The position numbers are program-made. DNA of 49,556 bases from a bacterium. Its GTDB lineage: Bacteria; DRYD01. Below, one piece after another: positions 12,001-18,000 of this stretch. Location of the stretch: contig JBCNVB010000024.1 of the NCBI GenBank assembly GCA_039630415.1, positions 1 to 49,556 on the forward strand. The letters run 5' to 3'. The stretch's first letter is position 1, and each line of letters begins with the position of its first letter.

Positions 12001-15000
12001 AATCTATCGTGAGTTCCCAACCGTTATAATCATACTTACAGCCTATACCTTCCAAGATCTTCAGCATAGTATGAATATCTTCTATGTTTGGGACATTTCT
12101 TATTTTAGTGACGTTATTTAGTATTATACTACAAGCTATAAGTGGTAAAGCACCATTTTTGGAACCTTGAGGAGAAAAGTATCCTCTTAGAATGTTTGGT
12201 CCTTCACAGACTATGTTTTTCATCCGTGTCTATCAGTACTAACACACTGTTTGATTGTATTTTTATAACTCCTTGTTTACACTTGTATTTTATAATCTCA
12301 TTATCAATGGTTTTAATAACTACCATAGAATTTTTGTTTATGGAGCTCATAAAGTCTGTATGATAGGGATATATAATTAGTTCACCTTCTCCTGTATCAA
12401 TTTTGAGTTCTCTTATCTTCAAAATTTTCGAAAAATATGGAGTACTTACTCTACACTCCATATTGTATGGATTCTATAAACTATCCAATATACCTTTCTT
12501 CTCATCTATACTATTTTTTACACTTTTTTTACATTAGCGTCAAAATTTGGACTTGGTCATACACATCTATACACATAGAAAACTACAACTTAAACTAAAG
12601 GGAACTTAAACTAAGGGGGTAAAACATGAGTGCTGTAAATAGTTTAAACATTCTGAACAATCAAATTATCAACGACAATATTCTTGTTAAAGACAATGTT
12701 CAAAACAACCAGGTAGCTAATGTTAATCACGAAAGTGATCAAAAAAGGGAAAGTATTCTTACGGATCTATTAGGTATAGATTTATCTAAAATAGATTTCA
12801 AAATAGATTTGCCTAAAATAGATTTGTCAAAATTAGATTTATCCAAGTTAGATATAAAGAAGATGAGTAACAGTCTAGTGGGAGCTGTATTAGGTGGGGC
12901 GTTGGCTTACATTACATTCAGTGCTGCCCTAATACCTATAGTTTTTGTTTGTCAACTTATACTCAGTGGAGGGTTGCCAATTAGAATACCACCAGAAATT
13001 GTTAAGATCCTAACTTCAATTTTGGAATTGTCAATACAATCGCTCAAATATCTTCCACCTGTAGCAGGAGCTATTGCAGGAGCTAAAAATATTAATAAAA
13101 TTGCTGAAAATGTTCAAAATCCCGCTAATCAAGCTGAAATCAGTGATCAAATTGACCACTTAAAAATAGCTTTTGAAAAATTTAAAAACAGTCAATCTTT
13201 GGATGATCACATTATTAATGGTTTTAATTTAGGTACTATTTGGGGTAAAGAGACGAATGCCAAGGCTGGTGAAATAGGTAGTTTACCTTTGGCTTTAGCA
13301 ATGGGTGCAGTTATGATGGCTCCGCTCGCTTTACTAGTTGCAAGTTTATTAGCAGGTAAGATGAATATATGGCTTGCACTCGGAACAGGTTTTCTAGCTT
13401 CATTACCTTTGGCTACAAAAACCTTTAGTGCTGTAAAGAATTTTGCAAAACAAGCTTATAGTTTAATAGGGGGAGCTATATCTGGAGTTGGTGGTGCAGC
13501 ATGGGGATATATATCCAAACTCATCAAAACTATTAAAGAAGGATACAAAGAAGAGGAACAAAAAGATGAGTTCCAACAAAACAGCCCCTATAAAACTCTA
13601 GGACTGCAACATTTGTTTGAAACTGGTGGAAAACTAACTGAAAACTTTATAAAAGGAACTTCTGATGTTCTGTCTTTTTCTTCTCTTATCAATAATATTT
13701 TAACTCGCAACCCTACGGGACTAGGAGTGATATCTTCTATTATTGCTGGTACGATCAAATCTTTTGAGGGATCTTCTACGCTTATACAAGCCGCTGCCAA
13801 CAATAGACCCCAAGATTTTAACAAAGGAATATTCAGATTACTTACAGGTTTGTCTTTATTGTTTAGCTTCTTAGCACCACTTTTTGGACCTATGGGAATA
13901 CTTGTTTCAAGTCTAATATCACTACTCTTCATGGCTCTTGAAAAAATCTCTAGTTTGAAGCAAGATCAAAATCTACAAGATAATCAAAACCAAAATGATG
14001 AAAAAGTCAAGCAAGAAAAGAATGAAAAACTTAAAAAAAGTTTTGCTATTGGGGTGGCTATTAGAGAATTTGTAAGTAGTTTAGGAAGTTTAGGTAAATT
14101 CTGGATGGGATGGGATTCTCTTTTTGGAGGTAATTATGGCGGATTAACATCCATATTTGGATTAATTGGATCAACCAGAGATATACTACAGGGTTCTAAA
14201 TTGATGCAACTTGCGGTAGAAAGAAGTAACCTTAAAATAGGCATAAAGGGTTTAATGAACGTAATAGGTGGTATTTGCCTAGGATTAGCTGCTATTGGGA
14301 TGGGTAAAGTTTTTGGAATTGCTGCTGTTGTTATAGAACTAATTAAGCTTATGCTAGCATAAACAAATAAAAAACAGGAGTTCTAACAGTATGATTAGTA
14401 AAATTATTCAAAACAATATAAAACATACAAATAATGATGGAGTGAACAAAAGGGTAAATGATTCAAATGGTAAAAACAACAAAGAAGACATACAGACATT
14501 GAAAATAAAATCCGATCAAGTTCAAATATTAAATCAGGATGATAGCAATATAAAAAATAAACAAATTATTACGGAGCAAGATATATTGTCATTTGGTTTT
14601 CTAGGTTTTACTATATCTACTGCTGCATTACCCTTTGTTGCAGGAGTACTAACAGGATTTTGTTCTCTTATTTTGGGTTTAATTTTAGGTTCTGGGTTGT
14701 TTAATACTCTTCCTGCTCATATTATACAAAAATTGCATTTAATTTATGGAATTTATCTTGGTTTGCTTGCTGTTGGTACACCATTTGCGGGATTCAAAGC
14801 TGGTCAGGAAGCTGCAAAACTAATTTTTTCAGACAAAACTGAGGAAAACTACAAAAAAGGTATTGAATATTTGAAAAAACTTAAGCCGTTGGAATTTGAA
14901 TTTGCTTGGGATTCTATTAATTTTGGGACTAAACTAGGTGATATTATAGGTAGAAATGTTTCATCTAGTGTGAGTTTACCGACTAGTATAGCTACCAGTA

Positions 15001-18000
15001 TAATAGCAGGTGCTCCTATTGCTTATGCAGTTAGTAAGCTTATTCCCGGTAATTTAGCTTTAGCTACAACTGCTGGAGTATTAGCTTCCTTACCTGTGGT
15101 GATCAAAGCATATAATGCTACTAAAGAGGTATCTAAAGATGCTCATGCTTTACATAATTCAATTATTTCTGCTGGACTTTTATCAATTGTTGGTATAATA
15201 GGTGAGATAGCCCTAGCAATCGTGAAATTAATCGATGTATTATTGAACCCAAGTAAGCTATGGAATCAGAATAAAGATCAAAGCGATAAAAATCAGACAG
15301 AAGGGGAATATTCGGTTATTGAAGCTGTTAATAAGATCAGTAAGAATTCGTTTAATTTACTTAAAAGCTTTTCTAAGGGGGTAGCTGAAGTGTTTTCAGT
15401 AGCAACTCCCATAACTAATCTTATATTGGGCAAAATTACACCAGTTAACGTAGCTTTGTCAACATATAGTGGTATTGTAAAATTATTAAAAGGTTTGAAA
15501 GATAATTCTCCAACAAAGTTAATTGATATTCTAAGTGGTGCAAGTTTGATAATATCCCCTATAACTGGTTTATTTGGTCCTATTGGAATAGCTTTGTCTG
15601 CAATTATAACCCTTTTACTTGAAGTCCTAAAAGATCTATATAACCTACAACAAAAGGTGAATCAAAAGGTAAAACTAGGTAAAGGATATAACTAAAGTAT
15701 AGGGGGTGAAAAAATGGAAATAAGAAATCAAAATGTTAATCAAAACCCAGCGCAAAATGCACCAATATCGGGAAGACCATTCTTCCCATTCCCTATAGAA
15801 AATCAGGAAAAAAATAACCAAGAAACGCAAGATGTACAACAAAATATACAAGATTACACTACTGATAGGGTAGTAATACAGAATAATAATCCAAATAGTA
15901 TGCCTTTCTTCCCGTTTCCAATAGAGAATCAGGGTAGATAGGTTTAATGAGAATAGACCAATTAGACATATTAAGGGGAGCTGCGATCTTATTTATGGTC
16001 GTGGCTAATTATTCTCCATACTATATTGAAAAACCATCGGAAATTTTGAGAATAATGTATACATTCGCAGCTCCTCTTTTTGTTTCTATAACCGGTTTCC
16101 TAATGTATAAAAACAAAATTGAAAAAGACTATAATGTGAACTACTTTGTTGTTAGGGGTGTTTTGCTAATAATTACTGCTAGTTTACTTGAAATGATTGG
16201 TTATAGAATCTATCCTTTGATGTCTGTTGATGTACTTTGCTTGATAGGAAGCTGTACTATTCTCTTGCCAGTTTTGCATAAAGTATGGAAATATTTTAAC
16301 TTGTGGAGTATTTTGATCATATTTATACTCACTATTTTTTTGCAGAATTTATTTGGATATAATCAACAAGCATATGAAATTACGATAGGTACTCCTATAA
16401 CCTTGCAGGAATACTTTGTAATTACTATCAAACAATTTTTCATTGATGGATATTTCCCTATATTTCCTTGGGTTGGGATATTTATGCTGGGGTTTGCATT
16501 CTATGATCAATTATACAAAGAAATAGTTATCAAAAACAAAATGGCTATGATATTTTTATTTTTTGTATTTAGTTTTATACTGGTTAACACGGAAAGATAT
16601 ATAAGGGATGGTTATGCAGAATTATTTTATCCGCCAGATTTTATTTTTCAGGCTTGGGCTACTTGCTTTTTATTTATCTGTTTTTATATGATCAACTTTA
16701 AAAATTACTACGTCCAGATAATAGGTAAATCATCGCTATTTTTCTATATTTTCCATTGCTTATTTGTAGAGTATATCCTGCAAAATATAAATTACACCAA
16801 ATACATTTTGAACAATGATTTTCCTCATATAAACTTTATTATCTCAGTTGTAATAACTTTCATACTAATGCTCTTAATCTCTTTTTATTTTGAATATCTA
16901 AAATCAAAGAAACCTAATATGCCTTTCATAGTTAAGTTTTTCATAGGTTCATGATCCATAAGAAGATATTGTTGCTCTACTTATGGAGTAATCTTAATTT
17001 TTTCAAAATAAGGCGGTTACTAGAAAGATTTGGTAATCAGGATCTTGACAAAAAAATTGATGAGGTATATAATTACGCAAATATAGATCAAAAACAAGAT
17101 GTTATTCTTGGAGCGTACAACATAGATTATAACATGATAAAGGATAGGATGAAGGTTTTCATTGATCAAGATTTTCCTGATTATTTGTTTGAAAGTGACT
17201 GTGGTTTAGTTTTTTATAAGGGAAACTGGGATTTTACAGATAGGAAGTATATAAGGGTGTCAATAGTTGGTTCTAGAAAACCTCTAAACATTTCCTCGGA
17301 GTTTGTTAGTAAGCTTTTGTTTTACTTGTCTGATATTAGTAATATTGTTGTTGTAAGTGGGTTGGCAACTGGAATAGATACGATAGCTCTTGAACAAGCG
17401 ATAAATAACAATATCGGAGCTACAGCTATACTGGGTAATGGAATAGACTACTATTACCCCTATCATAACAAAGTTTTACAGACTAATCTTTTTAAGAATG
17501 GTCTAGTTTTTTCTGAGTACCCACCTAATCATCCTCCTAGAAAATACTACTTTCCTTATAGAAATAGGTTAATTGCAGCAATGAGTGATGTGGTAGTTGT
17601 TGTTCAAGCCTCTGAAAAGAGCGGAAGTATAATAACTGGTAAATATGCTCTGGAGATGGGAAAAACTTTAATCGTTCCTTATCTTTCTAATACCGAAGAT
17701 TTTGAAGGATCAAAGCAGCTGATAAACTCTGGAGCAATTCTAATATCCAAACCTCAGGAAATCTTAAACTATCTACCATTAAATTTCTTAAAATCCAATA
17801 CAAAAAGCCATATGCAAAACTTACAAAAGACACAAAATTATCAAGAATATCAAGACGAAATAATCAAAATAGTAAGATTAAATCCCGGTATAACTCTAGA
17901 AAAAATTGCACAAATTACGGAGATTAATCTACCAGAACTAATAAAAATTGTTACAGAGCTTGAACTACAGGGAAAATTACAACTAGAATTTGATTACTCT

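Follow-up and report, generated by a model that had tools for sequence, protein, structure and literature searches.

Helical orphan proteins as candidate cargo of a filament-less flagellar export apparatus in two bacterial phyla

The window analysed here, a stretch of 49,556 nucleotides, belongs to the genome of a Calescibacterium-like hot-spring bacterium (G000). It contains two adjacent orphan genes, g00822 and g00823, among the following features.

12517..12533, + strand: box TTTACA-N5-TTTACA, a WalR/OmpR-type site, ~110 bp 5' of g00822
12626..14362, + strand: g00822, all-helical orphan of 578 aa
Residues 1-80 of g00822: variable, N/Q-rich leader
Residues 81-305 of g00822: Gly/Ala-rich helical domain
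Residues 309-445 and 461-578 of g00822: two tandem helical repeats of ~130 aa each
13550..14359, + strand: the tandem repeats of g00822, with homologues in Xenobia/CPR1 proteins of 370-430 aa
14391..15695, + strand: g00823, 434 aa, g00822 paralogue without the last repeat
15714..15941, + strand: N/Q/P-rich ORF of 75 aa, motif PFFPFPIENQ twice, third gene of a probable operon
22789..22805, + strand: second copy of the box in the window, 5' of the subtilase gene; score 19.5
22854..24293, + strand: signal-less S8 subtilase (PF00082), second candidate cargo in the window

Both orphan ORFs proved to be real and paralogous, as the genome-wide survey's note had proposed: the two proteins share 29% identity (E 3e-20), and neither matched Pfam. 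The survey's gene numbers were placed on fresh ORF calls through its own descriptions, an inferred mapping. Orthologues of g00822 were found in 9 of 11 phylum genomes, consistent with the wide occurrence reported for the family; the two genomes in which it was not found are 71% and 73% complete, and the Calescibacterota genomes compared are incomplete MAGs (71–90%). Only G000 carries a second g00822-type copy (g00823) among the 11. The 75-aa ORF, which ranks 17th of 1327 in NSQTP content, has a homologue 3' of g00822 in genome G005 as well. The intergenic gap holding the first box is common to g00822 and a divergent 85-aa gene, and a sigma-70 scan of the locus stayed at chance level (16 observed vs 16.7). 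The subtilase retains intact D/H/S motifs, with an N-terminal hydrophobicity of 0.32.

The N-termini of the orphans were indeed variable and non-hydrophobic, as claimed: identity is 0.20/0.17 over residues 1–80 and 0.43–0.58 in the folded parts, and N-terminal hydrophobicity is 1.14 for g00822 and 0.47 for g00823. In g00822, hydrophobic helical hairpins coexist with the lack of a Sec signal. Four of its 19-residue segments have hydropathy of at least 2.0; g00823 has five of at least 1.6, three of which reach at least 2.0. The four segments of g00822 equal true membrane proteins of G000 in hydrophobicity, which counts against export. Because these helices are of membrane strength, the signal-less state is weak evidence for g00822, and both orphans could be inner-membrane proteins. 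The g00822 repeat matched the Xenobia/CPR1 proteins in profile–profile comparison (probability 99.7, E 1.5e-26), and five of six Xenobia repeat homologues lack a membrane-strength segment, which counts for a role as cargo. Foldseek returned no g00822 match at E ≤ 0.001 (model pTM 0.60), and the best VIA-align matches were generic four-helix bundles (Z 10.8; 107 residues aligned at rmsd 2.7); neither these nor a PDB sequence search yielded a pore-former fold. The PDB search and Atlas gave no family, although an absent match does not exclude one; the Atlas leads SseF (0.78) and RTX (0.76) all fell below the 0.9 bar. No longer fusions of the repeat (752–2145 aa) were found, which is weak evidence, and one metagenome scan gave no relative of g00278.

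The box, with consensus TTWACA-N5-TTTACA, was found 5' of 9/9 g00822 orthologues. Genome-wide, it occurs 36 times at spacer 5 vs at most 13 times at spacers 2–4 and 6–9. It is a subset of TGTWAH-N5-TGTWAH, the consensus for WalR, and occurs in both orientations; the relaxed WalR pattern showed no spacer-5 excess (46 vs 43 at spacer 9). The survey had reported a box shared between cargo and machine genes. This held for fliF (24.8, reverse), flgB (14.7) and flhB (14.7, reverse), but not for the SLT genes g00638/639 (4.3, −2.7) or g00301 (−1.8). The HExxH paralogue g00301 does lie directly upstream of flgB; we rejected this adjacency as evidence, as the flgB box sits between the two genes and the machine genes are scattered. 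In Calescibacterota, the box precedes 11/11 pilin-like genes, 7/8 g00781 and 8/10 flhB genes. It also heads Sec-signal and housekeeping genes; of the 39 forward box genes, six encode hydrophobic Sec-like N-termini (at least 2.99). The regulon extends beyond the secretome. The best NCBIfam match of the candidate regulator at C8:30108 was YycF (272.6 bits, below the cut-off of 340). A FliA promoter was rejected as an explanation of the box, which is an 11-bp direct repeat found in both orientations; the sigma factor at C3:52896, moreover, scores SigB/F above FliA. Both orphans probably form part of a co-regulated group of likely export cargo.

The apparatus comprises the FlhAB-FliOPQR gate, FliHIJ, FliF, FliGMN, a FliE-FlgBCFG rod, FliK, an SLT and an FlgE-like protein of 271 aa that lacks D2, encoded on many contigs in G000. 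FlhA is present in 11/11 genomes (66–89% identity), and FlhB NPVH and the FliI Walker motifs are intact. Flagellin_N (PF00669) was found in 0/11 genomes, and MotA_N (PF20560), FlgE_D2 (PF07559), FlgD (PF03963) and FlgK (PF22638) in 0/5 each, while controls matched; E. coli queries gave no match for FlgH/I, FliD/S, FlgM or CheA/W. FliG R281 and R297, the stator-contact (torque) arginines, are lost in 4/4 proteins of the secretion type; among other FliG proteins, R281 is kept in 11/11 and R/K297 in 10/11. These data bear out the survey's filament-less flagellar export gate. Flagellar models beat injectisome models for FlhA (747.6 vs 543.7 for HrcV), FliI (654 vs 599.5 for SctN, whose cut-off is 604.75), FliP (253 vs 192), FlhB and FliR. 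We regard a non-motile secretion machine as highly probable. G000 is diderm (BamA, LpxABD) and has two secretin genes, neither with a box and one in what is presumably a pilMNOPQ-like run; no secretin was seen in the secretion operons read. The diderm genome, the lack of FlgH/FlgI matches and the boxless secretin genes leave outer-membrane passage without an evident route, which counts against the secretion reading.

The system is not peculiar to one lineage. A single FlhA clade unites Calescibacterota with a second, Xenobia-like phylum and stands apart from the latter's flagellar FlhA. There, the system is encoded in a compact operon and coexists with a separate complete flagellum: of 42 such genomes, 14 encode flagellin, and every one of these 14 also has a second FlhA; flagellin occurs in 0/26 single-FlhA genomes. 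In 7/7 clusters examined, the 271-aa FlgE-like gene lies between the fliK position and fliM, and flgD, motAB and fliL gave no match. Among matching genes of this phylum, the box (at most 2 mismatches) precedes 11/15 vs 16/280 (p=1e-9); it was absent 5' of the Xenobia repeat homologues (0/6). Adjoining flhA is a strongly conserved gene for a pilin-like helical protein of ~80–100 aa with HrpA-pilin-like features (233 matches; 65–100% identity among the 120 matches listed), modelled as a single helix. Atlas scored it 0.91, with 176 shared features and HrpA_pilin on 24% of cluster members; Pfam HrpA reached no better than E 0.09, in one of seven members scanned, and a PDB search gave no relative. 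A weakly similar, box-bearing family occurs in 11/11 Calescibacterota genomes; its tie to the family beside flhA is weak (probability 41, E 2.8e-4; six-frame HMM E 0.31). The lost stator residues, the coexisting flagellum and the pilin-like candidate in the regulon lend better support to a filament-less export apparatus used for secretion. Our results suggest a hitherto undescribed secretion machine that the two phyla share.

The survey's list of cargo is plausible. Its claim that C11 proteins are signal-less was confirmed in 30/30 ORFs parsed from 29 loci (four cut by locus ends, one of these a duplicate), all with N-terminal hydrophobicity of at most 1.77; box scores reach at least 14 in 22 of the 30. 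C11 occurs in 11/11 genomes. The four clostripains reported for G000 were recovered as four C11 matches, but the His-Cys dyad is intact in only three; the 615-aa protein lacks both catalytic residues in 5/5 aligned copies. Clostripains, subtilases, nucleases and HExxH proteins were without Sec signals in all genomes parsed. The N-terminal NSQTP bias was reproduced (0.317 in 69 box-flanking genes vs 0.232 in 1258 others, p=5e-8), but whole-protein NSQTP is also raised (0.286 vs 0.246, p=4e-10), which makes the bias N-terminal only in part. The reported lack of TatC agrees with a search of G000 with E. coli queries, in which TatA and TatC did not match, the RseP control did and the TatD control was silent. 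The nucleotide auxotrophy was likewise upheld (purE and pyrD in 0/5 genomes; controls 14/14). We infer secretion, cargo status and predation, the last solely from the auxotrophy and the type of cargo.

On balance, we favour a non-rotating type III secretion system in Calescibacterota, derived from a flagellar basal body, with box-regulated cargo including g00822/823 directed against neighbours. The rod and a short hook-like tube would form the conduit, possibly extended by the conserved ~80–100-aa helical pilin-like subunit. Without flagellar late substrates, the FliK/FlhB switch would redirect export towards non-flagellar proteins whose polar leaders are disordered, and an OmpR-family regulator at the WalR-type box would co-induce machine and cargo. 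Most likely, g00822/823 would be such cargo, as amphipathic Gly/Ala-rich helical bundles inserting into a membrane. Co-delivered proteases, nucleases and wall hydrolases would break down neighbour cells and feed the nucleotide auxotroph. That g00822/823 are substrates of the machine is rather likely; their insertion into a foreign membrane and an attack on living cells are both somewhat doubtful.

Alternatively, secretion may reach only the cell's own periplasm or surface, as part of a WalR-like envelope regulon acting on the own wall or dead biomass, with g00822/823 as integral inner-membrane proteins. The fit of the box to the WalR consensus, the YycF-like regulator scoring under its cut-off, the missing L/P-ring match, the four hydrophobic segments of g00822 and the Sec-signal genes in the regulon are consistent with this. 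We nevertheless consider it unlikely: none of the clostripains, subtilases, nucleases and HExxH proteins is a wall enzyme or, in the genomes parsed, carries a Sec signal, the Xenobia repeat homologues are not membrane-hydrophobic, and the pilin-like gene is strongly conserved.

Motile cells whose flagellin and stators have diverged beyond detection or are absent from the MAGs (Colman et al. 2016) are far less probable. FliI passes the flagellar clade-2 cut-off, FlhB and FliP pass flagellar cut-offs, the genomes are incomplete, and PMC4791363 reads the genes as motility genes. However, flagellin is missing from 11/11 genomes that all have FlhA, four more families from 5/5, the FliG torque residues are lost, and flagellin-bearing relatives use a separate FlhA clade. 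A decaying flagellar relic, with orphans and enzymes cytoplasmic and linked by a common regulator only, would suit the scattered genes in G000 and FliF and FliG scores below equivalog cut-offs. It is very improbable given a highly conserved FlhA, intact motifs, and the retention of both the box and a compact operon in two phyla.

The survey's 'independent shift' from flagellum to secretion was not demonstrated. FlhA groups with SctV (support 96/89), and AU tests reject neither history (p 0.126 for FlhA with Bacillota, 0.615 for FliI with SctN), in trees built without Rhizobiales, Ysc, SPI-1/2 and chlamydial SctV/SctN and with contig-scan FlhA as outgroup, mostly ordinary flagella among the matches listed. 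A living flagellum–injectisome intermediate, sister to all non-flagellar T3SSs, retaining flagellar rod and C-ring but with a small HrpA/SctF-like pilin instead of flagellin, and injecting hydrolases and membrane-inserting proteins of the g00822 type into other prokaryotes, is an improbable reading: contact-dependent type III delivery would have arisen against microbes before eukaryotes. If true, the favoured reading would place a third branch of type III secretion, one that spans phyla, between flagella and injectisomes; if independent of injectisomes, the system would still represent a parallel exaptation, equipped with a pilin and cargo of its own. The box offers a route to candidate substrate lists in both phyla. 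The favoured reading would supply a mechanism for the predatory way of life suggested for relatives of Xenobia (PMC9259500) and overturn the interpretation of flagellar genes in Calescamantes as serving motility (PMC4791363).

Like T3SS translocators and glycine-zipper membrane-active proteins, g00822/823, g00781 and g00278 are all-helical, with polar variable leaders and Gly/Ala-rich hydrophobic hairpins; unlike translocators, g00822/823 have no sequence or fold match and, in the loci read, no adjoining TPR chaperone gene. The regulon resembles that of WalR (YycF/VicR) in its box and in having wall hydrolases among its targets, but also includes secretion-machine genes and signal-less proteins, under a candidate regulator below the YycF cut-off.

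The machine shares with the flagellar hook-basal body and flagellar T3SS of Bacillota-type gene order FlhAB, FliOPQR, FliHIJ, FliF, FliGMN, FliE, FlgBCFG, FlgJ and FliK; unlike a motile flagellum, it lacks flagellin, FlgK, FlgD, FlgE D2, MotA and the FliG torque arginines. Like Hrp-pilus-type injectisomes, it would export by a type III route without rotating and has an SLT of its own, a ruler paired with a switch, and a candidate small helical subunit that shows HrpA/HrpE-like features; its FlhA sides with SctV, and its FliI scores just under the SctN cut-off. It differs in keeping the flagellar rod (FlgBC), FliE, FliG/M/N and FliF, in showing no linked secretin in the operons read and no significant SctF/HrpA homology, and in its hosts, hot-spring and other environmental bacteria. 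Buchnera carries reduced hook-basal bodies that lack filament and motor and for which protein export has been proposed, as the endosymbiont's only such system; here, in contrast, two phyla are involved, coexistence with a full flagellum is possible, and there are an own regulon and candidate subunits. The Myxococcales T3SS, as described by Abby and Rocha 2012 (PMC3459982), is likewise non-motile, secretin-less and proposed to translocate protein, and lacks FlgBCDEK, FliEG and SctF. The pre-secretin, needle-bearing ancestor proposed in the same paper would become testable in living genomes. As FlgBC and FliEG are kept here alongside a pilin-like candidate, the present system is more flagellum-like than the Myxococcales T3SS described there.

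The window is contig C17 of the source genome (G000; 1.40 Mb, 89% complete). It carries two adjoining orphan genes, both real open reading frames with no Pfam match:

12626-14362, g00822, encoding 578 amino acids
14391-15695, g00823, encoding 434 amino acids

The two are paralogues (29%, E 3e-20). g00822, whose homologues bear the source label Candidatus Calescibacterium, is present in 9 of 11 genomes of the phylum, with two copies in G000 only. In a 19-sequence alignment the leader varies and is followed by a domain rich in Gly and Ala, with two repeats at the C-terminus. The AlphaFold model is all-helical (pTM 0.60) with a low-confidence leader, and structure comparison matched solely generic four-helix bundles. 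The repeats resemble 370–430-aa proteins from sources named Xenobia, CPR1 and 'Armatimonadetes' MAGs (profile probability 99.7). Four segments of g00822 have hydropathy of at least 2.0, as in real membrane proteins of G000; five of six distant repeat homologues lack any segment of at least 1.6.

The direct repeat TTWACA-N5-TTTACA (the box) was found in 9/9 upstream regions of g00822 orthologues, once with a single mismatch, 82–111 bases ahead of the start. Across G000, the strict pattern gave 36 matches at spacer 5 and at most 13 at other spacers. A matrix built from these 36 matches, circular inside G000 and independent when applied to other genomes, scored 50 G000 sites at 11 or above. Boxes flank machine genes (fliF, flhB, flgB and fliM), enzyme genes (three C11, two S8, two EEP nucleases and NlpC/P60) and many orphans, and likewise Sec-signal and housekeeping genes. 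The N/S/Q/T/P bias claimed for N-termini of this set was replicated (0.317 vs 0.232, p=5e-8), but it is not confined to N-termini, as the whole proteins are biased too (0.286 vs 0.246). The WalR consensus in the accessible part of PMC4168254 contains the box as a subset; with the relaxed WalR consensus, the spacer-5 excess was absent in G000. The OmpR-family product of C8:30108 is the likely binder.

Further loci in the window and elsewhere in G000 were also recorded. Divergent from g00822, and sharing a box with it in genus g1, is a lone ATP-synthase epsilon N-terminal-like gene (12204-12461), ahead of murA and mreB-like genes. A divergent sigma-70-family factor (41597-42295; best named matches WhiG/sigma-28, far under cut-off) lies ahead of genes for HEAT-repeat, ABC and VWA proteins. 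On contig C3 (87391-92572; L063:201-5379), three tandem paralogues have N/S-rich leaders and Gly-rich beta-repeat-like middles; two of three carry a reverse-orientation box, and the two scanned had no Pfam match.

The export machine of G000, a diderm, comprises FlhAB, FliOPQR, FliHIJ, FliF, FliGMN, FliE, FlgBC, FlgF, FlgG, FlgJ, FliK, an SLT and a 271-aa FlgE-like protein. FlhA occurs in 11/11 genomes (identity 66–89%), and the motifs of FlhB and FliI are intact. Flagellin_N was detected in 0/11 genomes and MotA_N, FlgE_D2, FlgD and FlgK each in 0/5, all with positive controls; FlgH/FlgI had no match in G000. FliG positions equivalent to E. coli R281 and R297, which have a role in torque, are lost in all four machine-type proteins; R281 is retained in the 11 other FliG proteins. 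Behind flgF in G000 lies a Cys-rich 94-aa orphan (C3:21931-22215; L045:7932-8213), with a relative near flhA in G070 (E 2e-36).

One FlhA from outside Calescibacterota is sister to the Calescibacterota FlhA; source names suggest that this second phylum is Eremiobacterota/Vulcanimicrobiota. Among 61 sampled genomes, 60 have FlhA and 19 flagellin. Calescibacterota-type FlhA was assigned to 42 by identity (47–55%), judged by eye. Fourteen of these have flagellin, all with a second full-length FlhA; flagellin was found in none of the 26 with a single FlhA. The order flgBC-fliEFGHIJ-SLT-fliK-271aa-fliMNOPQR-flhBA recurs in 7/7 clusters, three of them incomplete at a stretch or contig end, and flgD, motAB and fliL had no match in these seven. 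In a 70-row tree, Calescibacterota, Xenobia-type and divergent flagellin-less FlhA form one clade (SH-aLRT 99), separate from the second phylum's flagellar FlhA.

A shorter, faster-evolving version of that operon, with a ~240-aa FlgE-like gene, occurs in G061, G063 and G044 (L246, L248, L251), where flagellin appears only alongside a second FlhA. The second phylum also has free-standing proteins of some 430–1175 aa built on the FlhA cytoplasmic domain (FHIPEP C-terminal; L261:5282-6667, L262:4357-7155, L263:4357-5712 in G070, G028 and G015). FlhA-type matches there number as many as 17 in one genome, and some of these proteins combine two of the domains with HEAT repeats; none was found in Calescibacterota. 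They are possible substrate-sorting adaptors. Two conserved flanking genes of the second phylum (L208:8592-8882, L203:12586-12930, L212:4331-4777) have no clear G000 homologue; one is divergent from flgB and the other, directly after flhA, is a candidate chaperone. A Melainabacteria-type cluster (flgC-SLT-fliE-fliF-(fliG)-fliH-flhA-fliI; L156, L157, L138), with long-branch FlhA, is possibly another non-motile system; of its genomes, G078 has flagellin and a second FliI, and G077 lacks flagellin.

Two genes past flhA in G015, G016, G031 and G046 is a 77–84-aa pilin-like protein with 233 homologues, often tandem, modelled as one helix. Its Atlas features are nearest to those of an unnamed cluster and of HrpA_pilin (0.91; carried by 24% of members) and HrpE-like (0.86) clusters; Pfam and PDB searches gave no confirmation. 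Its best G000 relative is C31:11239 (phmmer E 8e-5 and 7e-4; profile probability just 41), whose family occurs in 11/11 Calescibacterota genomes, with a longer paralogue in 10/11 and a box before 11/11 parsed genes. In the second phylum, a box with at most two mismatches precedes 11/15 machine and pilin genes, chosen partly after their upstream sequences had been viewed, vs 16/280 others. A third, box-bearing family member of 96 aa (C5:205771-206061; L060:14063-14350) stands in convergent orientation to a secretin gene in three genomes (G000, G002 and G003) and is present in 4/5 other genomes.

The genome-wide survey's note proposed signal-less cargo and a cell-attacking life. All 30 parsed C11 proteins lack a hydrophobic signal; the 615-aa clostripain lacks the catalytic dyad. 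The HExxH proteins, with no Pfam match, carry HELGH, then EAFAD, a thermolysin-like pattern. The coiled-coil candidate g00781 is in 9/11 own-phylum and 5/13 second-phylum genomes. g00822 and g00823 are probable, as yet unproven, cargo of the machine. purE and pyrD were found in 0/5 genomes and a nucleoside transporter gene carries the box, a gene content that fits feeding on other cells, living or dead. A further enzyme for breaking down or recycling cell wall in the window is the exo-N-acetylmuramidase NamZ (40527-41600), whose N-terminus is not hydrophobic (1.09) and whose gene carries no box. Long clostripain-like proteins (L195, L196, L197 and C14:10478-12325 of G000) have a helical C-terminal part which, in the second phylum, is weakly similar to the g00822 repeat (E 9e-11 to 8e-9); G015 keeps the dyad and the others have lost it.

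The same note had read the machine as an independent flagellum-to-effector shift. With LG+C20 on 39 of the 70 FlhA/SctV rows (seven long-branch rows and 24 others left out), the machine clade plus six SctV split from 24 flagellar FlhA (support 96/89), and a tree constraining machine FlhA with Bacillota FlhA was not rejected (p 0.126). Quick FliI trees did not group machine FliI with SctN; a tree forced to join them (32 of 44 rows) was 3.4 log units better (p 0.615). With SctV and SctN thinly sampled in both, the machine may be independent of injectisomes or may be their sister.

The flagellum-derived system spanning the two phyla, probably one for secretion, is real and apparently undescribed: no description was found by title and abstract opening, a scope beyond which subscription journals, PMC8397712 or supplements may hold one, and the accessible part of PMC11696919 has nothing further on such a system. 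Colman et al. 2016 (PMC4791363), in the portion available, read Calescibacterota flagellar genes as motility. The pattern of two systems in one genome recurs in Ca. Eudoremicrobium, according to the annotation tables that accompany Paoli et al. 2022 (PMC9259500); in the sections accessible, that paper places these genes solely under flagellar and secretion categories. Abby and Rocha 2012 (PMC3459982), as far as the available text goes, proposed that the ancestor had SctF but no secretin and that exaptation took place several times.
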